Assembly (NCBI GenBank): GCA_951406725.2
Contig: OX597819.1
Coordinates: 76,322,001 to 76,386,000 of the forward strand
From: Octopus vulgaris
Taxonomy: Eukaryota
Direction: 5' to 3'
DNA length: 64,000 nucleotides
Under the pieces are notes generated by a model. It was not told where the DNA came from. It did no database searches and was given only the letters and a program-made list of their open reading frames with translations. Positions 4,191 to 55,435 of the stretch are shown one piece after another (within the stretch, counting starts at the first letter, position 1; every line of letters begins with the position of its first letter). A program made the position numbers and the translations under genes.

Positions 4191-4652
4191 CTTGTTGATT
4201 TTGAAATTTCAATGACTAGTTTTTTCTTCTCGCTAGACACCTGGTAGCAAAAACATTTTCTAAATTTTCTAAATTTTTTTGCTACCCTGGAATTAATTAA
4301 TAATGATATAATGACTTCTGGCTAATTTTGAAAGAAAATCGGCATTTTTCGTACCTACTGCCGAAAAAACCGCGCTCGCGCGGTGGATTTTGAAATTTTA
4401 TAACATGTAAACACGAGGTATGTTCTGTATCACCTCGTCTTTATATGTTAATCTTGGCTTTCCTGCTGATGAGAGCTTCACCTAGCAATTTATTTTATTT
4501 GTGAAGATAGCTTGAAACCATGGTACAGGAAATAGATGGTAAATGTTTTTAGTTTTTATATTCCCTTTGGAAATTACCCCTAATAGAGGTTTAGAGTTTA
4601 ACTACTCCTTCTAGCGGGTCAACTATCCTGTTATGGCCATCTCTTATATGTT
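4191..4652 (+). mobile_element. Solo ~460-bp diverged monomer of the HHR-containing ~500-bp repeat family
   Basis: Collinear similarity to the array unit (ttgttgat, ctggtRgcaaaa..ttttgcYaccc, ttctggYtaatt, ctgccga, tttgaaa, HHR, ggtaaatgttttt, cctRttatggcc); flanked by microsatellites. Confidence 0.75.
4459..4532 (+). ncRNA. Type I hammerhead ribozyme
   Basis: tttcctg CTGATGA gagct..agctt GAAA ccatgg TA caggaaa: 7-bp stem I, 5-bp stem II, palindromic stem III, GUA site (cleavage after 4525). Confidence 0.9.
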
Positions 4653-13146: not shown

Positions 13147-13147
<1 letters not shown>

Positions 13148-13678
13148 CTACAAAATTAGAGAATGGAGAAACATACTTAAATCAGTAAAACATCAACTAT
13201 CCGATGATACTCAATCCATACTTTAATACACCATTACATATGAGTAAAGGCAATATATAAAATGAAATGAGATATACAGTAATAGTAAAAGTAAAAAGAT
13301 AAAGAGATATAAGTAAAATTTCAAATATAATATGCAAATAAACCAAAACTGACAGCTGTTTCGGCAGTGAGGACAGTCATACCTCATTTAACCTATAAGC
13401 CATAAAGGCAGGTCTGCCTTTATGGCTTATAGGTTAAATGAGGTATGACTGTCCTCACTGCCGAAACAGCTGTCAGTTTTGGTTTATTTGCATATTATAT
13501 TTGAAATTTTACTTATATCTCTTTATCTTTTTACTTTTACTATTACTGTATATCTCATTTCATTTTATATATTGCCTTTACTCATATGTAATGGTGTATT
13601 AAAGTATGGATTGAGTATCATCGGATAGTTGATGTTTTACTGATTTAAGTATGTTTCTCCATTCTCTAATTTTGTAGT
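13147..13678. repeat. Perfect 532-bp palindrome (265-bp arms, 2-nt GT spacer at 13412-13413)
   Basis: Arms read as exact reverse complements; each holds a hammerhead half-core GAAACAGCTGTC (13463-13474 on +); right arm continues uniquely to ~13850, then (TA)n. Confidence 0.9.
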
Positions 13679-13873
13679 ATTAATTTACGGTAATATTATT
13701 ACCTTTACCCATTTAATACAATAGATGAACTGATTGCTTGACAATTTTTAACATCTATGTATTATTTTTGTTGGGTACCTATCTAGCAGTATATTGGATA
13801 TATATTATCCCATGGTGGGTTGAATTTTCAACCCCTATCTCATTTTAACCTATATATATATATATATATTTTT

Positions 13874-14278
13874 ATAATTAATCAATATAGGGTGGCAAAA
13901 AATTTTGTAGAATTCTTTTGCCACCAGCGGCCTAGTAGGAAAAAATTAAAATAGTCAAAGACCATTTTTAAGTTCAACATCAACAATAAAGGAACGGCCA
14001 TAATAGGCCATTCACCCACTAGAAATAACAGCCAAAGCTTCAACCGCAAATAAAAGTTAATTCAGTAAACCAGGAGAAAATTAAAAAAAACATTTACCCT
14101 GTAATTTCTTATACGATATACCGTTTCATCTGCTGATTAATGGTAAACTAACCTGATTAAATTAAATCAAGCCAATCTTCCACAGGCCCTCAGATTCTTC
14201 AGTAAGAAATAGCCCAAGACGGAACAGATATTTTCACGAGGCATTTCCGACGTTGCCAAGTTAATATCTGACCTAAAA
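13874..14278 (-). mobile_element. Inverted partial (405-bp) copy of the array unit, head-to-head with the array
   Basis: Near-exact reverse complement of the unit from ttttaggtcaga to gattaattat; abuts (TA)n on its outer side. Confidence 0.95.
14104..14210 (-). ncRNA. Type I hammerhead ribozyme (inverted copy)
   Basis: Reverse complement of the array HHR. Confidence 0.88.
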
Positions 14279-14582
14279 AGGTGAATGGCCTATTATGGCC
14301 GTTCCTTTATTGTTGATGTTGAACTTAAAAATGGTCTTTGACTATTTTAATTTTTTCCTACTAGGCCGCTGGTGGCAAAAGAATTCTACAAAATTTTTTT
14401 TTTTGCCACCCTATATTGATTAATTATGAATTTTCTGGTTAATTCCGTAATGGAATCGACGGCTTATATTTATTTGCTGCCGATAAATTTGGCGCGAGTG
14501 CGACGATTTGAAAATTTTAGGTCAGATATTAACTTGGCAACGTCGGAAATGCCTCGTGAAAATATCTGTTCCGTCTTGGGCT

Positions 14583-14689
14583 ATTTCTTACTGAAGAATC
14601 TGAGGGCCTGTGGAAGATTGGCTTGATTTAATTTAATCAGGTTAGTTTACCATTAATCAGCAGATGAAACGGTATATCGTATAAGAAAT
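14583..14689 (+). ncRNA. Type I hammerhead ribozyme, unit 1
   Basis: atttctta CTGAAGA atctg [56-nt structured loop] cagat GAAA cggtatatcg TA taagaaat; 8-bp stem I; cleavage predicted after A14681. Confidence 0.92.
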
Positions 14690-15078
14690 TACAGGGTAAA
14701 TGTTTTTTAAATTTTCTCCTGGTTTACTGAATTAACTTTTATTTGCGGTTGAAGCTTTGGCTGTTATTTCTAGTGGGTGAATGGCCTATTATGGCCGTTC
14801 CTTTATTGTTGATGTTGAACTTAAAAATGGTCTTTGACTATTTTAATTTTTTCCTACTAGGCCGCTGGTGGCAAAAGAATTCTACAAAATTTTTTTTTTT
14901 GCCACCCTATATTGATTAATTATGAATTTTCTGGTTAATTCCGTAATGGAATCGACGGCTTATATTTATTTGCTGCCGATAAATTTGGCGCGAGTGCGAC
15001 GATTTGAAAATTTTAGGTCAGATATTAACTTGGCAACGTCGGAAATGCCTCGTGAAAATATCTGTTCCGTCTTGGGCT

Positions 15079-15185
15079 ATTTCTTACTGAAGAATCTGAG
15101 GGCCTGTGGAAGATTGGCTTGATTTAATTTAATCAGGTTAGTTTACCATTAATCAGCAGATGAAACGGTATATCGTATAAGAAAT
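15079..15185 (+). ncRNA. Type I hammerhead ribozyme, unit 2
   Basis: Same sequence as the unit 1 HHR. Confidence 0.9.
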
Positions 15186-15572
15186 TACAGGGTAAATGTT
15201 TTTTAAATTTTCTCCTGGTTTACTGAATTAACTTTTATTTGCGGTTGAAGCTTTGGCTGTTATTTCTAGTGGGTGAATGGCCTATTATGGCCGTTCCTTT
15301 ATTGTTGATGTTGAACTTAAAAATGGTCTTTGACTATTTTAATTTTTTCCTACTAGGCCGCTGGTGGCAAAAGAATTCTACAAAATTTTTTTTTGCCACC
15401 CTATATTGATTAATTATGAATTTTCTGGTTAATTCCGTAATGGAATCGACGGCTTATATTTATTTGCTGCCGATAAATTTGGCGCGAGTGCGACGATTTG
15501 AAAATTTTAGGTCAGATATTAACTTGGCAACGTCGGAAATGCCTCGTGAAAATATCTGTTCCGTCTTGGGCT

Positions 15573-15679
15573 ATTTCTTACTGAAGAATCTGAGGGCCTG
15601 TGGAAGATTGGCTTGATTTAATTTAATCAGGTTAGTTTACCATTAATCAGCAGATGAAACGGTATATCGTATAAGAAAT
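15573..15679 (+). ncRNA. Type I hammerhead ribozyme, unit 3
   Basis: Same sequence as the unit 1 HHR. Confidence 0.9.
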
Positions 15680-16070
15680 TACAGGGTAAATGTTTTTTAA
15701 ATTTTCTCCTGGTTTACTGAATTAACTTTTATTTGCGGTTGAAGCTTTGGCTGTTATTTCTAGTGGGTGAATGGCCTATTATGGCCGTTCCTTTATTGTT
15801 GATGTTGAACTTAAAAATGGTCTTTGACTATTTTAATTTTTTCCTACTAGGCCGCTGGTGGCAAAAGAATTCTACAAAATTTTTTTTTTTTTGCCACCCT
15901 ATATTGATTAATTATGAATTTTCTGGTTAATTCCGTAATGGAATCGACGGCTTATATTTATTTGCTGCCGATAAATTTGGCGCGAGTGCGACGATTTGAA
16001 AATTTTAGGTCAGATATTAACTTGGCAACGTCAGAAATGCCTCGTGAAAATATCTGTTCCGTCTTGGGCT

Positions 16071-16177
16071 ATTTCTTACTGAAGAATCTGAGGGCCTGTG
16101 GAAGATTGGCTTGATTTAATTTAATCAGGTTAGTTTACCATTAATCAGCAGATGAAACGGTATATCGTATAAGAAAT
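16071..16177 (+). ncRNA. Type I hammerhead ribozyme, unit 4
   Basis: Same sequence as the unit 1 HHR. Confidence 0.9.
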
Positions 16178-16569
16178 TACAGGGTAAATGTTTTTTAAAT
16201 TTTCTCCTGGTTTACTGAATTAACTTTTATTTGCGGTTGAAGCTTTGGCTGTTATTTCTAGTGGGTGAATGGCCTATTATGGCCGTTCCTTTATTGTTGA
16301 TGTTGAACTTAAAAATGGTCTTTGACTATTTTAATTTTTTCCTACTAGGCCGCTGGTGGCAAAAGAATTCTACAAAATTTTTTTTTTTTTTGCCACCCTA
16401 TATTGATTAATTATGAATTTTCTGGTTAATTCCGTAATGGAATCGACGGCTTATATTTATTTGCTGCCGTTAAATTTGGCGCGAGTGCGACGATTTGAAA
16501 ATTTTAGGTCAGATATTAACTTGGCAACGTCGGAAATGCCTCGTGAAAATATCTGTTCCGTCTTGGGCT

Positions 16570-16676
16570 ATTTCTTACTGAAGAATCTGAGGGCCTGTGG
16601 AAGATTGGCTTGATTTAATTTAATCAGGTTAGTTTACCATTAATCAGCAGATGAAACGGTATATCGTATAAGAAAT
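16570..16676 (+). ncRNA. Type I hammerhead ribozyme, unit 5
   Basis: Same sequence as the unit 1 HHR. Confidence 0.9.
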
Positions 16677-17075
16677 TACAGGGTAAATGTTTTTTAAATT
16701 CTCTCCTGGTTTACTGAATTAACTTTTATTTGCGGTTGAAGCTTTGGCTGTTATTTCTAGTGGGTGAATGGCCTATTATGGCCGTTCCTTTATTGTTGAT
16801 GTTGAACTTAAAAATGGTCTTTGACTATTTTAATTTTTTCCTACTAGGCCGCTGGTGGCAAAAGAATTCTACAAATTTTTTTTTTTTTTTTTTTTTTGCC
16901 ACCCTATATTGATTAATTATGAATTTTCTGGTTAATTCCGTAATGGAATCGACGGCTTATATTTATTTGCTGCCGATAAATTTGGCGCGAGTGCGACGAT
17001 TTGAAAGTTTTAGGTCAGATATTAACTTGGCAACGTCGGAAATGCCTCGTGAAAATATCTGTTCCGTCTTGGGCT

Positions 17076-17182
17076 ATTTCTTACTGAAGAATCTGAGGGC
17101 CTGTGGAAGATTGGCTTGATTTAATTTAATCAGGTTAGTTTACCATTAATCAGCAGATGAAACGGTATATCGTATAAGAAAT
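17076..17182 (+). ncRNA. Type I hammerhead ribozyme, unit 6
   Basis: Same sequence as the unit 1 HHR. Confidence 0.9.
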
Positions 17183-17573
17183 TACAGGGTAAATGTTTTT
17201 TAAATTTTCTCCTGGTTTACTGAATTAACGTTTATTTGCGGTTGAAGCTTTGGCTGTTATTTCTAGTGGGTGAATGGCCTATTATGGCCGTTCCTTTATT
17301 GTTGATGTTGAACTTAAAAATGGTCTTTGACTATTTTAATTTTTTCCTACTAGGCCGCTGGTGGCAAAAGAATTCTACAAATTTTTTTTTTTTTTGCCAC
17401 CCTATATTGATTAATTATGAATTTTCTGGTTAATTCCGTAATGGAATCGACGGCTTATATTTATTTGCTGCCGATAAATTTGGCGCGAGTGCGACGATTT
17501 GAAAATTTTAGGTCAGATATTAACTTGGCAACGTCGGAAATGCCTCGTGAAAATATCTGTTCCGTCTTGGGCT

Positions 17574-17680
17574 ATTTCTTACTGAAGAATCTGAGGGCCT
17601 GTGGAAGATTGGCTTGATTTAATTTAATCAGGTTAGTTTACCATTAATCAGCAGATGAAACGGTATATCGTATAAGAAAT
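17574..17680 (+). ncRNA. Type I hammerhead ribozyme, unit 7
   Basis: Same sequence as the unit 1 HHR. Confidence 0.9.
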
Positions 17681-18079
17681 TACAGGGTAAATGTTTTTAA
17701 ATTTTCTCCTGGTTTACTGAATTAACTTTTATTTGCGGTTGAAGCTTTGGCTGTTATTTCTAGTGGGTGAATGGCCTATTATGGCCGTTCCTTTATTGTT
17801 GATGTTGAACTTAAAAATGGTCTTTGACTATTTTAATTTTTTCCTACTAGGCCGCTTGTGGCAAAAGAATTCTACAAAATTTTTTTTTTTTTTTTTTTTT
17901 TGCCACCCTATATTGATTAATTATGAATTTTCTGGTTAATTCCGTAATGGAATCGACGGCTTATATTTATTTGCTGCCGTTAAATTTGGCGCGAGTGCGA
18001 CGATTTGAAAATTTTAGGTCAGATATTAACTTGGCAACGTCGGAAATGCCTCGTGAAAATATCTGTTCCGTCTTGGGCT

Positions 18080-18186
18080 ATTTCTTACTGAAGAATCTGA
18101 GGGCCTGTGGAAGATTGGCTTGATTTAATTTAATCAGGTTAGTTTACCATTAATCAGCAGATGAAACGGTATATCGTATAAGAAAT
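18080..18186 (+). ncRNA. Type I hammerhead ribozyme, unit 8
   Basis: Same sequence as the unit 1 HHR. Confidence 0.9.
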
Positions 18187-18306
18187 TACAGGGTAAATGT
18201 TTTTTAAATTTTCTCCTGGTTTACTGAATTAACTTTTATTTGCGGTTGAAGCTTTGGCTGTTATTTCTAGTGGGTGAATGGCCTATTATGGCCGTTCCTT
18301 TATTGT

Positions 18307-18310
<4 letters not shown>

Positions 18311-18989: not shown

Positions 18990-19626
18990 TGTAATTTCCG
19001 TTCAGAACAGGTTTGATCATTTTAATAAAACGTTTTTCTTTTATCTTTCTTTCAACCTTAGTTGTGTCATGTGGTTTTTGGAAAGGAAAACTTTTTAACA
19101 ATTTCTGACCACATTTTTCTTTTGTATATTCGCTCGATGGAATTTTGCGAACATTAGTTTTCCTGATCTATTGTCTGTAGACTCGTGAGCGTTTCAATAA
19201 CGCATTTCCTGTCTCACTAATATATAGCTCCTCTCAATTAGGGCATTTATTGTAGTAGATCAAATTTCTGCTTTTGCGGTTCATATCTGCATTTCCGAAA
19301 ATCTGCCCTGTTTCTGTTCTAATGGATCTACCAGTATGTAAGTATTGACACGTCGCAGATTTATTATCATTACACTTGGATATTGTGAATGCTTTATCCT
19401 GTTCCTGCTGAATTTTGCCTTTGTAAATTTTGCTTTTGATGAAGTTAAAAATGTTTGGGTGATGCGGATTGTGTGTTACTAGAAATGGTATTTTGTTCCG
19501 TTGACGGGTTCGTCTTTCTCGTGTTGCCCTAAGTCGTTTAGTTGGTATCTCTTTCTTGTTTGTAGGAGAGTGTATTTTTGCTTGACCATACATCTTTGAG
19601 TCGTATGTTCCTGGTATTTGGATCAT
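18990..19626 (-). pseudogene. Penelope-like element relic: linker, Zn motif and GIY-YIG endonuclease
   Basis: IPFLVTHNPHHPNI..KCNDNKSATCQY..SRNLIYYNKCPN, continuing past a stop into YISETG. Confidence 0.7.
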
Positions 19627-19838
19627 CTACTATACTACAAATATTCCTGGAATGACAGTACGGGATGGTGTGTTTTGTTTGTGGTGTATGGTACGATTTG
19701 ATATTTAGGTACTGGTGTGTATAGTACTAAATATCAGTTGTGAATTTGGTGTTGTTTTTAATTACCATTTATGAATATTACAAAATATTTTTGAATGTTT
19801 AACTCACTTCAGCAATGTAATTTTTCTTTCAAATACAA

Positions 19839-34219: not shown

Positions 34220-34856
34220 AAAATTTAGAGGATTGACCACTATAAGTGTACAGCCTGTATGCTAGATATAGACGTCAAAATCGCCATTTTTCACGAGGAA
34301 TGTGTTCTCAAGAAAAAATTCAGCAAAAACCCAGTGTGAAAATAACAAGACAAATGAAAATATACGAAATAAAAAACGATTACCTATGTACTAATTAGTT
34401 TCGCTTGTAAATATTTACGTATATGGGTACGTAAACATCAGCAAGATCATCAGCATAGTCTGTCGTTTACGAAACATAATTTCCAGAACTAGATACAGGG
34501 CGCTCAACCGAAATCCAGCATGTATAAAGTTCCACAAATTATATTTAAGTGTATCTTTCAAATGCCTTCAACTTGGCGCGCTGGGATAGGAAATTACTCT
34601 GCAGTTAATAAACTACAGCAGTCAGTTTACCGGCTAGAGAACATTTTTTAAATTTAAAATGAATTAAGGGAAGAAATTGATATTAATCATTTAAAACCAG
34701 TGGCCTAGCATATTTAAAAAATCCGAAGATTATAAATTTTTTACATACAAAATTTAGATGATTGACCACAAAAAGTGGACAGCCTGTATGCTAGATATAG
34801 ACGTCAAAATCGCCATTTCCACGAAAAATGTGTTCTCAAGAAAAAATTCAGCAAAA
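34220..34856 (-). mobile_element. ~1.2 copies of a 529-bp HHR-containing tandem unit
   Basis: ~108-bp direct repeats at 34220-34328 and 34749-34856 with an HHR between them; 3' end abuts a long TA/TATG tract. Confidence 0.75.
34384..34458 (-). ncRNA. Type I hammerhead ribozyme
   Basis: Minus strand: ctatg CTGATGA tcttg..tgtttacgta/tacgtaaata..caagc GAAA ctaattag TA catag; first stem II pair mismatched. Confidence 0.8.
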
Positions 34857-36989: not shown

Positions 36990-37755
36990 TTGACATGAGC
37001 AATGATGCATCTTTCCAAATGCATATTGCTAATCTGGTGATAAAATGCAGACGGCTAGCTGGATGGATTCTCCGAACTTTCAGAACTCAGAGAGAAGGAG
37101 ACACTGATGGTCCTATGGAAAACATTCGTCCTCAGCCGCTTGGACTACTGCTCCCAACTTTGGTCACCACACAATATAAAACTAACAGCAGAACTCGAAG
37201 CAATTCAGAGAAGCTACACAAAGAAAATCGTCTCAATGCAAAATATCAGCTACTGGGAAAGACTGAAGGTATTAAACCTCTTCTCCCTAGAGCGGAGGCG
37301 GGAGAGATATGCGGTGATATACATCTGGAAAATCCTGGAGGGTCTTGTCCCAAACGTTGGCATTCAAAGTTACTCCAACCGCAGAACGGGGCGCCACTGC
37401 ATGGTGCTAAGGATTCCAACATCACCATCAAAATACAGGTCCAGATACTGCAACAGCTTGGGTTTCAGAGGACCACAGCTCTTTAACATCCTCCCTAAAT
37501 GCCTGAGAGACTTACATGGTGTGGATGTGGGTTTCTTTAAAACTAAACTGGATCTCTTCTTGTTGGGAGTCCCAGATGAACCTACCTCACGACAGGAGAC
37601 GCGGATGCGGGCAGCAGCATCGAACTCCCTTGCTGATCAAGTGCCACGTATCAGAGGTGGATTCACAAATTAGTGTAGCTCATTCAGCGGTGGTGCCCCA
37701 GCATGGCCGCGGCCTTCGGGCTAAAACATTTTTAAGGATTTAAGGATTTAAGGAT
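36990..37755 (+). mobile_element. 5'-truncated CR1/L2-group LINE (RT C-terminus, 3' UTR, (AAGGATTT)n tail) in (TA)n
   Basis: ORF 37107-37673 LWKTFVLSRLDYCSQLWSP..SYWERLKVLNLFSLERRRERY; frameshift near 37090; TA tracts on both sides. Confidence 0.88.
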
Positions 37756-37769
37756 ATATATATATATAT

Positions 37770-37814
<45 letters not shown>

Positions 37815-37823
37815 TAACAAAAA

Positions 37824-37861
37824 CTGTCTGATGAACGGCAACGAGAAACTCAGAGTAACAG
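37824..37861 (+). ncRNA. Minimal type I hammerhead ribozyme (slightly degenerate)
   Basis: ctgt CTGATGA acg gcaa cga GAAA ctcagag TA acag; a degenerate paralog lies on the minus strand at ~22303-22343. Confidence 0.65.
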
Positions 37862-37963
37862 AATTTGTTGAATTTCTGCTGCTTTAAATAAAGCATATTA
37901 CTCTACCACTGCTATTTGTGTACTCTTTTTTTCCACCTTGTTTCACATTTATGTGTTTACTCC

Positions 37964-38024
<61 letters not shown>

Positions 38025-47446: not shown

Positions 47447-47864
47447 ATGTGAGAGAGGCAAATGTTTGTGTTCGAAATGAAGAATTCTTGTGGAGGAGGA
47501 TATAGAGAAAATAGAAGGAAATAAGTGAATAAATGTAGAAATAACATAAAATATTGTAGTTGTAGTTTCATTATTCGAGGAAAATGGTGTATAGAAGTGG
47601 TAAAAAAAGTTTCCTGTACATTGTATGTAATTTCCGAGAGTAGTTCATGTTTAGTCATTTCAAAGTATGGAACCTTGGATTCTGTGTTATCCATTCGAAG
47701 GGGTTATGTGGTGTGAATGAAAATTTGAGAATGTATTGGTAATATTTGTGGATAGATGGAGGGGGAGATGTATATAAGATTAGAGTGAGGAGATAGGTGA
47801 AAATGATGAGAGGACGGGAAAATGAGAGGAAGAAAGAGAGAAGAAAGAAAACAGTTAAAAGACT

Positions 47865-48170
47865 AATGGCATCTAACCTCACTCGTGTTTCCCAAAACCT
47901 CATTTACGTAATCCGATGCTCGGGCTACCATGGAAACTATTTTGGCTCAACAGGAAATACAATCCGAAGATATACTGTCCACAGACAACAAATATCTACC
48001 CCACAATATTACCAAATATACCTCAATCAACACATTGACGAATGTGAAGAACGAATACAACAACGATTCGTAATTTTCCCATTTTATCAGCTTGCCTTCT
48101 GGACCTCAACACAAGTAAAACTGAATAAAAAAAGCCTCATTTATCCAAAAGTATAAACCGGAATTAAATA
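47865..48170 (+). pseudogene. Penelope-like GIY-YIG endonuclease relic
   Basis: SNLTRVSQNLIYVIRCSG..NYFGSTGNTIRRYTVHRQQI..HIDEC..IFPFYQ. Confidence 0.75.
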
Positions 48171-48587
48171 TGAACCGATATTAAAAATAAAGGACTTACT
48201 TCATCTAATGAAAGATATAAGCTGGAATAAAGTAGAGAACACATAAGAAAAATGAAAATCAAAGATTTGCCTTCCCTTTACTGCAAAATAAATGAGTGAA
48301 CAATTATCTCCCCAGCAACATTTTCCCCCAAGCAATTTATCTCTTTCAACTCTCAGTTTGATGAGCAATACGAGACCGCTCATTACTTCATTTATGTTGA
48401 AAAAACAAAACCTTATTTTGTACAAAATTATATAATAGCTATATTATCATGGCTCTAATTATATTCTTAAATCCTGTTAAACAAATCTGTGCATTTTCAT
48501 ATTTTCGCCTTCTCTATATACGTCCACCATGTGTTTTTCCCTACTAAAATATTTTCTACCCTATACATACACATACATACTACACAT

Positions 48588-49107: not shown

Positions 49108-49178
49108 ATATATATATATATATATGGCAGCCCAGAAAAATAGGACGAATACTGTGGTTGATTAGTTCCAAGTGGTAT

Positions 49179-49402
49179 GTGAGACATAAAACCAGTGTCA
49201 ATTACAACCTTCGAACAAGAGAGGTCATTATATTTCCTTTGCTGTTTCAACAACCACAGTCTAGTTTCGTGGTATTTTCCCCTTTATACACATTAATAAG
49301 GGGGGAATAGCCCGAAACTAGACTGTGGTTTTTGAACCAGCAAGGGAAAGCTGATGACCTCGCCTGTTCGAAGGATCTAATGAACACAGGTTTCTGTCTC
49401 AC
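49179..49402. repeat. Imperfect ~224-bp foldback
   Basis: gtgagaca..ccttcgaaca..gaggtcat..aaccacagtctagtttcg pairs with cgaaactagactgtggtt..atgacctc..tgttcgaagg..tgtctcac. Confidence 0.8.
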
Positions 49403-49567
49403 CTAGCTAAACAACAGCAGCAAACACGGTCTCTCAAAGATGTTTCAATCCATCCATACACACACATATACATACATATATATGTATATATATATAGAAA
49501 TTCGGGGTGAGTACTTGATAATTATAAGCACCTGTGTATACCGTTTGGTGGTGTAGGTGGTGGAGTA

Positions 49568-51167
49568 AATTGATCAAAATAAAAATAAAAACATGAGGCG
49601 AAGGATTCAGCGGTACATATGTTTCGGGCCTTTATTAGACAGATTTATAACAAAGCATAATGTATGTCTGTGGCCTTCTTCAGCCGCGCACAACAGCTTC
49701 CACAAGGACATGTGTTACATCAAAAATTCTTGGTTGGGGATGCAAATCCTCTCGTTCACGTACGACATAATGCGGCAGCAGCATAGAATTGAAGCGTCCA
49801 TCTCTTTCTTCTCTCAATGTAGAATGAGGAAACTTGGATGTTGAGGTAATGTAAATAAATAAATACGTATATAGAGGTGAAGATGGAGGGGCGAGAGTTC
49901 GGGACGAGGGATAAAAAATATATATAAAAGATGTACGTATAGAATAATATAAAAATGTAGAGGATAAAGATATAAAGAGTTGTAATGAGATGTAAAGGGG
50001 GTATAAAGAAATATAAAGAAATATAAATAAATGTAAAGGCATAAGGTTGTAAAGTAAAAATAGAAATGGAAATAATAGTAAAAGAAGTAAAAGAACCTGA
50101 TAAAAACATGATAAAAGTGTAAAAGAATGTAAAGATAAGGGATGTATAGAGGTCGCGGACCAAGCATGGTGGTCAGGAGATTGATAAAACTTAGTTGTAG
50201 AACTGTCAGTAAATTAACAGTTTCGTCGTAAATCAGAGCTGATGAGAATTTAATCTGGTTCCTTGAATTAAATGGACTTCCAGTACATACATATCATCAT
50301 GGATACATACACCCACATACACGTGTACATACACGTCTCCAAGCCTATAAGCATACACACGCACTCGCGTGTAAACACGTACATAAACACACACGCACCC
50401 ACACGCACGCGCGCACACACACATACATACAACAGAATATCCGCATATATAGACGGACATTACGCGCGTACACGCTCACATGTATATACGCGCGCCCCTC
50501 ACTACATACACACACGTATATGCCCACGCCCCTAGGTCTAGGTATAAGATATTAAAGGATGTGTATAAGAACGTATGTAAAGAATCCCGTACTCATGTTA
50601 ATACGCGCACGCACACACGGCTGTGTGTCCGTATGTGCGTGCACATATACACTCATACACACACACAGAGACACACGCGCACATGGGTATAGCCATAAGA
50701 TATCGAAGTATGCATGTACATATACGCGCGTGCATATGTATGCATGCGCATACACACGTACGCGGACGCTCGCATACTCAAAAGGCGGATCCATAGGTAA
50801 GTAAATAAACATATATAGAGGTGTAAAGCGATAAATTAGGGGTAAGAATGAGGGTAAGGGTAAAGATTAGAAATAAAAAAATACAGTATAAACTAAGAAA
50901 TACAATGTAATAGTTAGAAATGAAATATAAGAATTATAAGGGTTATAAGAGTTAAGGTAAGGGATGAAAATGAAAATGAGAGTAAATGGAAGTAGAATAA
51001 AAGTAAAAATAAAATTAAAAATAAAAATAAATGGAAGTAGGATAAAAGTAAAAATAAAAATAAAAATAAAAATAAAAATAAAATAAAATAAAATAAAATA
51101 AAAAAAAAATAAGGTAAAAATATAATTTTGTAAAGTTTAACATGAGATGGAGGTGGCACACATATAT
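49568..51167 (-). repeat. 3' pseudo-LTR arm (1600 bp), sense to the ORF
   Basis: Reverse complement of 53768-55364 with only a few substitutions and a 3-nt poly-A length difference. Confidence 0.95.
49610..49687 (-). ncRNA. Type I hammerhead ribozyme in the 3' pLTR
   Basis: gcgg CTGAAGA aggcc..ggccc GAAA catatg TA ccgc. Confidence 0.85.
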
Positions 51168-51330
51168 ATATATATGTATATGTACACATACGTACACGTA
51201 TGTGCACATACACACGCACACACACACACACACACACACATACACACGCACATATAGGAAAGCGGGATGTGCTGGAGCCGACAGGTTGCACCGGGTGGGA
51301 GGAAATAGCATGGGGGAGTTGGTATAAGAC

Positions 51331-53793
51331 CTAAGCATTATAGTATTTGAAAGTATTAATAAGTTTATGTATACAGGATGGTTTGAACTCTGACCTTTTG
51401 TTAATAAGATTGTGTTTGTCTTTGAATTTCAAGATGTTCAGGAGTTCTACACAGCATAGTTGGCATCCTGCTCTATTATTTAAATAAGGTGCAGCTGATC
51501 CGATGATGGACCATCTGAGTTTGAAGCCTATGCATTTGTCTTTTAATTCCCAAATTCTTTTAGAGAGGGAGGTGCTGTTAGCCTTATGTCTATGTCTCAG
51601 CGAGGACCGGTGGTTGTAGTATCTGGATTTCCAGGAGGTTGAGCAACCAATATAGGTGAGTGTGTTAAACTGAGTACTCACCTCACATGAGTATATTACG
51701 TTTTTCGCCCTGCATGCGCCCTGCAGCGGGCACTCTGATGCACATCTGCAGTTGCATTGCATTGCATTATTCGGTCGTGTGCTGCTAATCCCAGGCGGAG
51801 GTGTTGCAATACGAGTGGGGGCGTTGGTATCCTCCTGGTTGTTGATGGGTGTAGTATTTCCTCTGTTGTGTTGGCGGGTGTTATTACTAACTGCTTGGGT
51901 AGTATGGCTGCCAGTCTGGTTATATTGCCTACTGTCTAGATGAGGGGGGTTCTGTTGGTCGCTATGGTTTGCTCTTGATCTAGCTGTTCTAATATTAATA
52001 TAGTTATGTTTAGCTAAGAGGCAGCTCATGTTGGGCAGGGTAGAGTAGGAAATCCTAATAGTTTTGTTGGAGAAGATACTTCTATATTTGTGGGTGGGTG
52101 GGAAGTTGTTGGAAATTATAGAGAATATTCTCTTACATAACTTACCCCTAACTGCTAAGTTGAAAGGTATGTTGAACCATATATATTTGCGTAATCTACT
52201 ATTATCCCTTCTATTTCTCCTAATAGGATCTATATTGCTCTCGTCGGGAGGGTTACTATTGTGTGCTGTTCTATTAGTTCGCCTATTTCCTATACGTTGT
52301 TTGGAGTTTGAATTAGACTTATCGGTAGTGTGAGTTGAGTGCTGAGTTCGATTATAATTGGGAGTCTTATGGTCGACGGACGCTCCCGGTTGGTCTACAT
52401 ATGATATTCTCTGGTTATACCCGGCACTATAGAGAGCTTGGTTGTAGTGTTGTGCATGATTATTGAAAATTTCTCTATTAGAGGATAGTTTTGTCAGTCT
52501 GTCTGAGATGGCTTGGACTGTGGTGCTAATTATACAGGGTGGATGGTTGGAAGAGGTATGGATGTATTTGGTAGTTTCTTCTGATTTCCTATACGGGTAG
52601 TGAAGGTGCTTATTCAAATCTAACGTAACATCTAAGAAGTTAACTATTTTAGTATTGGTCATAAATTCTAGTTTAAGATTGAAGGATTTGAAAAAAAGCC
52701 TGATCTTTTTCCTAATTCTTTCTAGTTTACTCCTATTGTTGGTGGGGTATATGAAGAGAGCGTCGTCTCTGTATAGACCCCCCTGAAGATCCGGTACCTC
52801 GGAGAAAAGCTTCTTGAGCAGGTAGGCCCCGACCAAGTCAGTCACCTGAGCTGAATCGCTCGAGCCCATAGCCACATCGAAATTGTCGGGGGTATCGGAT
52901 CTGGTCCAGAGTCTACCGTCGAATTCTATTATGGTTTTTCTAGCTAATAGAATTATGTCAATTTTTTCTCTGTCTATGAGTGAAAGGTTGCGGGCAAAAA
53001 TAAGGGATTTGTTAAGTAAGATGGGGGATATACTGGCGTAGTAGCTAGCTATGTCGAATTGGATGAATGAGTAGTCGGGCCTATTGGTGATAGTGTTAAA
53101 CCATTCTAGCACATCGCTGGTATTAATCCATAGTTGGAGTGGGATGTGGGGTTTGATGTGTGGGATCACCTTGTCCAGGATGGTCTTGCTAAGTCTGCCG
53201 ATATCCGATTTAGTCGGACAGATTAATCGTACTCCTACACTATCTGGGAAGTCTTTCTTATGGTCTTTAATAGTAATTTTGGGTACTTGCGGTTTAATAG
53301 GTTCTGTTCTGTCCAGGAGGTCTAATTTGCTCATAACTTCCTTGATTTTGTAATTAATTTCCTTAAGGTTATCCGTAGAAGTAGTTTTATACTTTTTGCT
53401 AAGTTCCCTCATGATGAGCGATTTGTAGGTTTGGTAGTCTAGCCTATACCAGTTCCCAGTCTTGTCGGCGGGTATGATAAGACTATCATCGTTCCTGAGT
53501 GAATGCAGGAAATCTTTAAGGCTCCTTAAGTGGGTGTTGGAAATGGTCTTATGTTTACTAATGTTGATGTTGGTAATGAGGTCGATTAAGTGTTTTTCAA
53601 AATTTTCCAGTGCGTAGTTAGAGGGTGGGTTTCTTCTGCTTTTAAATATCTTCCTGTGTGCTATTTCTTCTTGGTTAGAGTTGGGGTTGCTTTTCTCCGG
53701 GTTATCGAAATGGTAGGCCGCCCACCTAATTCTTCTAATAAAGTCTGTGGTCCGGTGGATGAGAGTCATATATGTGTGCCACCTCCATCTCAT
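51331..53793 (-). CDS. Penelope-like reverse transcriptase with C-terminal GIY-YIG endonuclease (820 aa)
   Basis: IPADKTGNWY; RT motifs QFDIASYYASI, AMGS, LYRDD, VNFLDVTL; thumb YIHTSSNHPP; CNCRCASECPLQGAC; VIY..YIG; RYYNH; CQLC..E; NKRSE. Confidence 0.95.
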   Translation of the reverse strand: MRWRWHTYMTLIHRTTDFIRRIRWAAYHFDNPEKSNPNSNQEEIAHRKIFKSRRNPPSNYALENFEKHLIDLITNINISKHKTISNTHLRSLKDFLHSLRNDDSLIIPADKTGNWYRLDYQTYKSLIMRELSKKYKTTSTDNLKEINYKIKEVMSKLDLLDRTEPIKPQVPKITIKDHKKDFPDSVGVRLICPTKSDIGRLSKTILDKVIPHIKPHIPLQLWINTSDVLEWFNTITNRPDYSFIQFDIASYYASISPILLNKSLIFARNLSLIDREKIDIILLARKTIIEFDGRLWTRSDTPDNFDVAMGSSDSAQVTDLVGAYLLKKLFSEVPDLQGGLYRDDALFIYPTNNRSKLERIRKKIRLFFKSFNLKLEFMTNTKIVNFLDVTLDLNKHLHYPYRKSEETTKYIHTSSNHPPCIISTTVQAISDRLTKLSSNREIFNNHAQHYNQALYSAGYNQRISYVDQPGASVDHKTPNYNRTQHSTHTTDKSNSNSKQRIGNRRTNRTAHNSNPPDESNIDPIRRNRRDNSRLRKYIWFNIPFNLAVRGKLCKRIFSIISNNFPPTHKYRSIFSNKTIRISYSTLPNMSCLLAKHNYINIRTARSRANHSDQQNPPHLDSRQYNQTGSHTTQAVSNNTRQHNRGNTTPINNQEDTNAPTRIATPPPGISSTRPNNAMQCNCRCASECPLQGACRAKNVIYSCEVSTQFNTLTYIGCSTSWKSRYYNHRSSLRHRHKANSTSLSKRIWELKDKCIGFKLRWSIIGSAAPYLNNRAGCQLCCVELLNILKFKDKHNLINKRSEFKPSCIHKLINTFKYYNA

Positions 53794-55361
53794 GTTAAAC
53801 TTTACAAAATTATATTTTTACCTTATTTTTTTATTTTATTTTATTTTATTTTATTTTTATTTTTATTTTTATTTTTATTTTTACTTTTATCCTACTTCCA
53901 TTTATTTTTATTTTTAATTTTATTTTTACTTTTATTCTACTTCCATTTACTCTCATTTTCATTTTCATCCCTTACCTTAACTCTTATAACCCTTATAATT
54001 CTTATATTTCATTTCTAACTATTACATTGTATTTCTTAGTTTATACTGTATTTTTTTATTTCTAATCTTTACCCTTACCCTCATTCTTACCCCTAATTTA
54101 TCGCTTTACACCTCTATATATGTTTATTTACTTACCTATGGATCCGCCTTTTGAGTATGCGAGCGTCCGCGTACGTGTGTATGCGCATGCATACATATGC
54201 ACGCGCGTATATGTACATGCATACTTCGATATCTTATGGCTATACCCATGTGCGTGTGTGTCTCTGTGTGTGTGTATGAGTGTATATGTGCACGCACATA
54301 CGGACACACAGCCGTGTGTGCGTGCGCGTATTAACATGAGTACGGGATTCTTTACATACGTTCTTATACACATCCTTTAATATCTTATACCTAGACCTAG
54401 GGGCGTGGGCATATACGTGTGTGTATGTAGTGAGGGGCGCGCGTATATACATGTGAGCGTGTACGCGCGTAATGTCCGTCTATATATGCGGATATTCTGT
54501 TGTATGTATGTGTGTGTGCGCGCGTGCGTGTGGGTGCGTGTGTGTTTATGTACGTGTTTACACGCGAGTGCGTATGTATGCTTATAGGCTTGGAGACGTG
54601 TATGTATACGTGTATGTGGGTGTATGTATCCATGATGATATGTATGTACTGGAAGTCCATTTAATTCAAGGAACCAGATTAAATTCTCATCAGCTCTGAT
54701 TTACGACGAAACTGTTAATTTACTGACAGTTCTACAACTAAGTTTTATCAATCTCCTGACCACCATGCTTGGTCCGCGACCTCTATACATCCCTTATCTT
54801 TACATTCTTTTACACTTTTATCATGTTTTTATCAGGTTCTTTTACTTCTTTTACTATTATTTCCATTTCTATTTTTACTTTACAACCTTATGCCTTTACA
54901 TTTATTTATATTTCTTTATATTTCTTTATACCCCCTTTACATCTCATTACAACTCTTTATATCTTTATCCTCTACATTTTTATATTATTCTATACGTACA
55001 TTTTTTATATATATTTTTTATCCCTCGTCCCGAACTCTCGCCCCTCCATCTTCACCTCTATATACGTATTTATTTATTTACATTACCTCAACATCCAAGT
55101 TTCCTCATTCTACATTGAGAGAAGAAAGAGATGGACGCTTCAATTCTATGCTGCTGCCGCATTATGTCGTACGTGAACGAGAGGATTTGCATCCCCAACC
55201 AAGAATTTTTGATGTAACACATGTCCTTGTGGAAGCTGTTGTGCGCGGCTGAAGAAGGCCACAGACATACATTATGCTTTGTTATAAATCTGTCTAATAA
55301 AGGCCCGAAACATATGTACCGCTGAATCCTTCGCCTCATGTTTTTATTTTTATTTTGATCA

Positions 55362-55364
<3 letters not shown>
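53768..55364 (+). repeat. 5' inverted pseudo-LTR arm (1597 bp)
   Basis: Reverse complement of 49568-51167; joins the ORF at an ATATAT microhomology. Confidence 0.95.
55245..55322 (+). ncRNA. Type I hammerhead ribozyme in the inverted pLTR
   Basis: gcgg CTGAAGA(55249-55255) aggcc..ggccc GAAA(55307-55310) catatg TA ccgc; cleavage predicted after A55318. Confidence 0.85.

Positions 55365-55435
<71 letters not shown>

Follow-up and report, generated by a model that had tools for sequence, protein, structure and literature searches.

A recent 5´-truncated insertion of a Hydra-clade Penelope-like retrotransposon in Octopus vulgaris, and its doubtful partnership with a non-coding hammerhead array

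Two clades of Penelope-like elements (PLEs) are of primary interest here. According to the available parts of the published description, the Hydra clade is defined by a C-terminal endonuclease (EN), the motifs RWK, DKT and CxCX5C, and CxxC and CxH pairs around the catalytic E and N; CCHH is absent, GxKF/Y is not conserved, and hammerheads and (TA)n targets are further attributes (PMC8557442). Naiads are characterized there by an N-terminal EN, a CxC domain, DKA, IFD and CCHH, and by absence of a canonical hammerhead. One Hydra family from an octopus, Hydra-1_Obim, was already published in that work. Mechanistic knowledge comes from a third clade. On AT-rich DNA, the enzyme of Poseidon PAc of Anolis cleaves both strands and extends them; as far as the consulted portion of that report goes, it uses two internal RNA start sites, the tail corresponds to the stretch between them, and RNA downstream is required (PMC11167929). 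Tails given in the accessible sections of these two papers measure 30-40 nt. For animal non-LTR retrozymes, mobilisation by PLEs was proposed (PMC7229834), and in Xenopus retrozymes were tied to PLEs by homology of pseudo-LTRs (pLTRs) (Li et al. 2026, bioRxiv 10.64898/2026.07.22.740005), in both cases as judged from parts of the texts. An octopus repeat annotation counts 31 recently active Penelope-like families, in the part available to us without clade or ribozyme detail (PMC13282606).

The locus described here lies at 49497..55365 of the window, by which we mean the whole analysed stretch of 64,000 nucleotides. An initial annotation, made from the letters of this DNA, had taken it for a young Naiad-like element and for a candidate autonomous partner of hammerhead arrays. 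We consider it probable that the locus is instead a recent, 5´-truncated insertion of a Hydra-clade element into (TA)n, likely produced by two-ended target priming and likely inactive, and that it probably does not carry the array. In what follows, family A is the family of this element and families B-H are the other open-frame Penelope-like families of the same genome. The features of the locus, and the array at a distance from it, are:

49460..49496, no strand: left target flank, TA/CA-rich (sequence)
49497..49567, minus strand: 71-nt tail between the short and the long end of family A (followed by the 5´ UTR in tandem copies)
49568..51167, minus strand: left arm, sense copy of the distal 3´ UTR (pseudo-LTR; arm alignment)
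49610..49687, minus strand: type I hammerhead motif, ORF-sense (pattern scan; predicted cut between 49614 and 49613)
51168..51330, minus strand: proximal 3´ UTR, absent from the right-arm duplication (sequence, arm alignment)
51331..53767, minus strand: native portion of the Hydra-type reading frame, reverse transcriptase (RT) then EN, minus its first 24 codons
51369..51756, minus strand: CxCX5C linker and C-terminal GIY-YIG-type endonuclease
52630..53470, minus strand: DKT motif and reverse transcriptase core (D247, YRDD 341-344)
53768..55364, plus strand: right arm, inverted 5´-truncated copy of the 3´ UTR, stopping at the short end
55245..55322, plus strand: hammerhead motif within the inverted arm (pattern scan)
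55366..55424, no strand: right (TA)n target flank
13871..18310, plus strand: 498-bp hammerhead array with an inverted arm, proposed passenger, outside the element

Most of what the initial annotation described as seen at this locus holds. The ORF (51331-53793, minus strand) is stop-free over 820 aa. Aligned over 1597 nt, the inverted arms of 1.6 kb (49568-51167 and 53768-55364) show 4 substitutions and one 3-nt indel (0.25%). TA-rich repeats abut both ends of the element, and the tail of 71 nt (49497-49567) is present at the left end only. A putative hammerhead does lie near the outer end of each arm, at 49610-49687 (-) and 55245-55322 (+); in the pattern scan both are of type I, with CUGAAGA core, GAAA, cleavage after GUA, a 4-bp stem I and three short stems. 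The minimum-energy fold of the element's hammerhead region does not contain the hammerhead (z -0.51), and the hammerhead family is absent among the 150 of 210 Rfam matches listed for the window. Because the motif reads in ORF sense on the left side and in antisense on the right, the left arm represents the true 3´ UTR and the right arm its inverted truncated copy. Two more type I hammerhead motifs, which belong to different and older families, occur at 4459-4532 (+) and 34384-34458 (-), and a MITE-like stretch of 250 nt (49150-49400) adjoins the element on its left side.

The genome was searched with the ORF; the best 40 of 447 candidates were scored and 30 loci fetched. The 29 loci other than ours are 93.9-99.6% identical to the window ORF, and over the aligned part the frame is free of frameshifts and stops in 11 of the 30. 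Variants shared between loci are synonymous and non-synonymous in a ratio of 78:45, private ones 103:162. Among 3´ ends, the best 40 of 1644 candidates are each 99-100% identical to that of the window, and the ORF was present in 20 of 24 listed public runs from 8 studies, one of which runs may be the source of the assembly. By these sequence comparisons family A is young and recently active. No A-to-G editing signature was seen in it (37 private A>G on 871 A, 53 T>C on 557 T). Counted from the predicted hammerhead cut, its ends cluster about 45-48 and 118-121 nt downstream, and (TA)n follows at 43 of 45 distinct ends. A short end is combined with a long one in 13 of 13 two-armed loci, which were chosen for containing the long end; the gap is 68-87 nt and typically ~72. 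The idea of a recently active PLE family with inverted pseudo-LTRs and (TA)n insertion sites, put forward in the initial annotation, thus agrees with both the identity of the copies and the behavior of their ends.

Family A is accompanied by seven further open-frame families revealed by protein searches, five of Hydra type (B, C, F, G, H) and two of Neptune type (D, E); hammerhead-like motifs and ends in (TA)n are common to all seven. Since these searches scored best candidates only, further families may exist. Ends lie in (TA)n in 22/22 cases for B, 7/7 for C, 38/38 for F, 12/12 for G, 9/9 for H and 21/22 for E; for D such a count would be circular, its ends having been called at TA runs. The gap between short and long end differs among families: 70-73 nt in B (8 loci), 67 in C (1), 150 in G (2) and 139-153 in H (3), with 32 nt in D and 38 nt in E. 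In family F, the sister of family A at 53% identity, it is 112-121 nt in 11 of 12 loci and 131-134 in the remaining one, about 118 on the whole. Family F is young and abundant as well (best 40 of 1757 candidates at 97-100%). The Hydra tails measured here, at 67-150 nt, are longer than the published 30-40 nt, and our literature search found no report of Hydra tails of 70-150 nt. A Naiad probe gave one exact match, an endonuclease fragment alone.

Several side observations concern these families and their neighborhood. Hydra ORFs in this genome span about 710 to 980 codons. In their hammerhead-like motifs, families D and H have the core CCGA in place of CUGA (L111-L130, L181-L196, L216-L220), and in family E, within the same set of loci, the core is altered further. 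In the window itself, an isolated family B 3´ end with hammerhead and tail sits within a TA tract at 37801-38005 (96% identical), and decayed Neptune-type fragments are found at 19000-19770 (-) and 47848-48183 (+), with 46% and 38% amino-acid identity to family D. A perfect hairpin of 265 nt at 13147-13678, bordered by TA runs and centred on a partial hammerhead, has a 96% relative in L207 and is probably a head-to-head pair of clipped ends from another family. Elements seem to insert commonly into TA runs that earlier insertions have left behind: an 82% relative of the array (L132:6147-6797) occupies the TA run that immediately follows an end of family B, and similar nested cases are L076 and L220. 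Positions 3-214 hold a short inverted-repeat element in which an inverted pair of 60 nt encloses a TA run. The stretch 36995-37673 (+), without any Pfam match, we take by eye to be a C-terminal fragment resembling a CR1/L2-type LINE ORF2.

Which of these families, if any, moves the 498-bp array? The array belongs to a young dispersed family of its own (best 39 of 934 candidates scored) and has the same two-armed build as family A, with one short and one long end; its end gap is 102-114 nt in 6 insertions, about 110. The initial annotation argued that its insertion signature matches that of our element, and that the element or a relative could thus supply RT and EN in trans. The resemblance is real as regards (TA)n flanks and two-ended build. 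Nevertheless, eight open-frame families share that target, so the flank does not single out family A; a comparison of flank preferences, a difference in which had been named as a refutation, likewise finds (TA)n for both parties (43/45 for family A, 20/20 for the array) and fails to discriminate among the eight. Moreover, array and element show no similarity (best blastn E 0.21), their local alignment scores z -1.3 against shuffles where related pairs reach z 3.7-9.1, and blastn detects no homology between the array and any of the eight families. Matches of the array at L091, L132 and L153 turned out to be array copies or the 82% relative, not PLE bodies. A partnership with family A, which shares no sequence with the array and differs from it in spacing, is consequently not supported by these comparisons. 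Another Penelope family of this genome is the likelier carrier, and a relative remains the plausible half of the original proposal, family F having the closest spacing.

The alternative that survives best is that the sister family F, or an F-like family, carries the array and that the enzyme largely sets the spacing. We regard it as a tentative possibility, compatible with the reading of the locus as an inactive truncated insertion. Family F, young and abundant, has with its 112-121 nt the spacing closest to the array's 102-114 nt among the eight families, and related pairs have similar spacing (B/C about 70, G/H about 150, D/E 32-38). The array-F alignment reaches z 2.1, a value equalled by 3 of 100 shuffles, yet it is non-significant over the six families tested, B giving 1.9, and blastn gives nothing past 20-nt chance matches. 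The two spacing distributions, with medians of about 110 and 118, have hardly any overlap, the distance from hammerhead cut to short end is 131 nt in the array against 37 in F, and the family census is partial. A more daring version, which we offer as speculation and consider rather unlikely, states that end spacing is an enzyme-set, family-specific ruler (32-38 nt for Neptune type; about 70, 118 and 150 nt for Hydra subgroups) and that the array rides an F-like Hydra enzyme. If this were true, tail length would tell, for each non-coding hammerhead array of this genome, which family carries it. It would be the first family-level pairing of PLE and retrozyme made without sequence homology, and it would offer a direct test of start-site choice by PLE reverse transcriptases.

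It is improbable, in our opinion, that intact copies of family A are the main trans-mobiliser of the array. This explanation presumes that end spacing is encoded by the RNA; were that so, spacing would be uninformative about the partner and the mismatch irrelevant. The difference in spacing between the sisters A and F is compatible with such RNA control, intact 836-aa copies of family A exist, and both A and the array are young, two-armed, one-short-one-long-ended and (TA)n-flanked. On the other hand, there is no sequence similarity, the target is common to seven other open-frame families, and the spacings (68-87 versus 102-114 nt) do not overlap.

Returning to the preferred reading of a truncated and likely inactive copy, its key evidence lies at the 5´ end of the ORF. 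Other family A copies match the window from 53767 onward and continue upstream with a common 5´ UTR and a different N-terminus. The start of the ORF is thus not the N-terminus of the family: its first 9 codons lie in the inverted arm, whose inner 26 nt supply the ATG at 53793 by accident. A native ATG is present in 11 of 30 family loci, located 24 codons before the junction, and the native frame of 836 aa is intact in 5 of 30. What the window copy misses amounts to 150 nt, namely 76 nt of 5´ UTR, 24 codons and 2 nt, and this stretch is absent from the rest of the 64-kb window. The lost N-terminal segment carries SxKxIP, and SxKxI occurs in 17 of 20 aligned homologs. The junction 53767/53768 is shared by none of the 29 other loci. 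In contigs of 3 of 4 public runs the native upstream letters were seen at 53767; among the contigs listed for these 4 runs none spans the junction, a gap that proves nothing, and the flank contigs end at the microsatellite. The window copy is 5´-truncated and uses a borrowed ATG, and it is not the full-length, intact autonomous element it was initially supposed to be.

Judging from its sequence, the copy is likely inactive despite open frame and catalytic motifs. It lacks both a direct pLTR on its upstream side and the RNA that would follow the long site, which makes it probably dead on arrival. Translation from the borrowed ATG may still occur, as the frame is open, both hammerhead motifs are intact and the arms are only 0.25% apart. 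One could go further and regard this very copy as a working source element, with the inverted arm as promoter and the arm ATG as start; its frame does encode the catalytic motifs of RT and EN, and the folded part is mostly modelled with confidence (mean pLDDT 78). We find this very hard to believe, because a conserved N-terminal segment is gone, 45 upstream ATGs are situated within the arm, read-through RNA would presumably form a 1.6-kb duplex, and this junction was found at no other of the 29 loci.

A possible course of events behind the proposed truncated insertion is as follows. If the protein encoded by an intact source copy behaves like the anole Penelope enzyme (PMC11167929), it would nick (TA)n on both strands. 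Reverse transcription would then start at two fixed internal RNA sites, presumably ~46 and ~118 nt beyond the point at which the hammerhead cuts. The first cDNA, primed at the long site, would extend over 4.27 kb and stop 150 nt before the full unit; the second, from the short site, would comprise 1.6 kb. Head-to-head joining of the two cDNAs, in an order that we infer, could explain inverted arms, one-sided tail and accidental ATG at once. The resulting copy would lack the 5´ UTR, the N-terminal segment with SxKxIP, and RNA downstream of the long start site. The whole mechanism is thus inferred for a Hydra element from an enzyme of the Poseidon clade.

Judged by the motifs of its protein, the element is a Hydra-clade Penelope-like retrotransposon of a family not previously described in that clade. 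RT motifs occupy residues 245-388 and the EN residues 699-809, so the endonuclease is C-terminal. DKT is found at 110-112 (ADKTG from 109), GLYRDD is present and GxKF/Y absent. The linker, initially read as CxCx4C, is in fact CxCX5C (C680-C688). The predicted EN residues are Y701, Y714, G716, R724, H728, E783 and N798, with CxxC at 777-780 and CxH at 807-809, and the EN residues are invariant across the six families compared; neither CCHH nor CX2-5CxxC occurs in the endonuclease of family A. At the RWK position family A has RWA, its sister F has RWK, and G and H have RWL. Two low-complexity, predicted disordered inserts (residues ~470-533 and ~614-676) lengthen the family A protein.

Profile and structure searches agree with this in part. 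The Pfam scan gave no RT or GIY-YIG match, and among solved structures a sequence search returned a single weak match, a retron RT (E 0.006). The predicted protein model has TERT as its top fold match (E 2.4e-9), and for the C-terminal part the Atlas lead is GIY-YIG (score 0.94, family on 11% of members). A protein search detected 29 relatives at E<=1e-10, the named ones from Argonauta and Octopus; the 20 that were aligned have the same architecture. A quick tree of these 20 homologs (9 of the 29 omitted) and the families of this genome, built without named clade references and without a Naiad protein, groups the family A protein with 25 Hydra-motif proteins, apart from the two Neptune-type families, with support of 100.

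A Naiad, as assumed initially, the element can scarcely be: domain order rules this out, (TA)n preference is its sole favourable trait and common to both clades, the C-terminal EN, DKT instead of DKA, the hammerhead and the absence of CCHH and CX2-5CxxC oppose it, a Naiad-type endonuclease fragment of the same genome shows a different cysteine pattern, and the very motifs cited in its favor are hallmarks of Hydra in the sections consulted (PMC8557442), YRDD and CxC...CPL matching by eye the Hydra rows of Fig. S7 there.

Taken together, the comparison with known systems is clearest for the Hydra clade as described in the consulted parts of PMC8557442. Family A shares with it the C-terminal EN, DKT, CxCX5C, CxxC/CxH, GLYRDD, the lack of CCHH and GxKF, and further a type I hammerhead motif, (TA)n targets, an inverted truncated copy and a one-sided tail. 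It differs by RWA in place of RWK, by a unit of about 4.4 kb with a 1.8-kb 3´ UTR against generally <3 kb, by two low-complexity inserts and a hammerhead with a long stem II loop, and by a tail of about 72 nt where 30-40 nt are published. Compared by eye with Hydra-1_Obim, its N-terminus and hammerhead are different, which suggests a separate family. With Naiads it shares (TA)n preference, pLTR and inverted structures, whereas N-terminal EN, CxC domain, DKA, IFD, CCHH and the lack of a canonical hammerhead stand on the Naiad side, so far as described. Two fixed ends with an intervening tail, AT-rich targets and a hammerhead just upstream of the ends connect it to Poseidon PAc; in the available account, PAc belongs to another clade, has its start sites inside the ORF, whereas those of family A would lie upstream of the ATG, and its activity is demonstrated, while family A is known here from sequence alone. 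The 498-bp array fits the class of animal non-LTR retrozymes, although the pLTR homology to a PLE seen in the consulted part of Li et al. has no counterpart between array and element. No characterised Hydra enzyme was found in our literature search, and the families of this genome therefore present a ready panel for tests of start sites and of retrozyme movers. Taken for itself, the element is nothing unusual: its family is new, but its clade has been reported from an octopus before. It belongs, however, to one genome with at least six young Hydra and two Neptune-type open-frame families, with a common target and family-specific tails of 32-150 nt, and the same genome also holds non-coding arrays of identical two-ended build.
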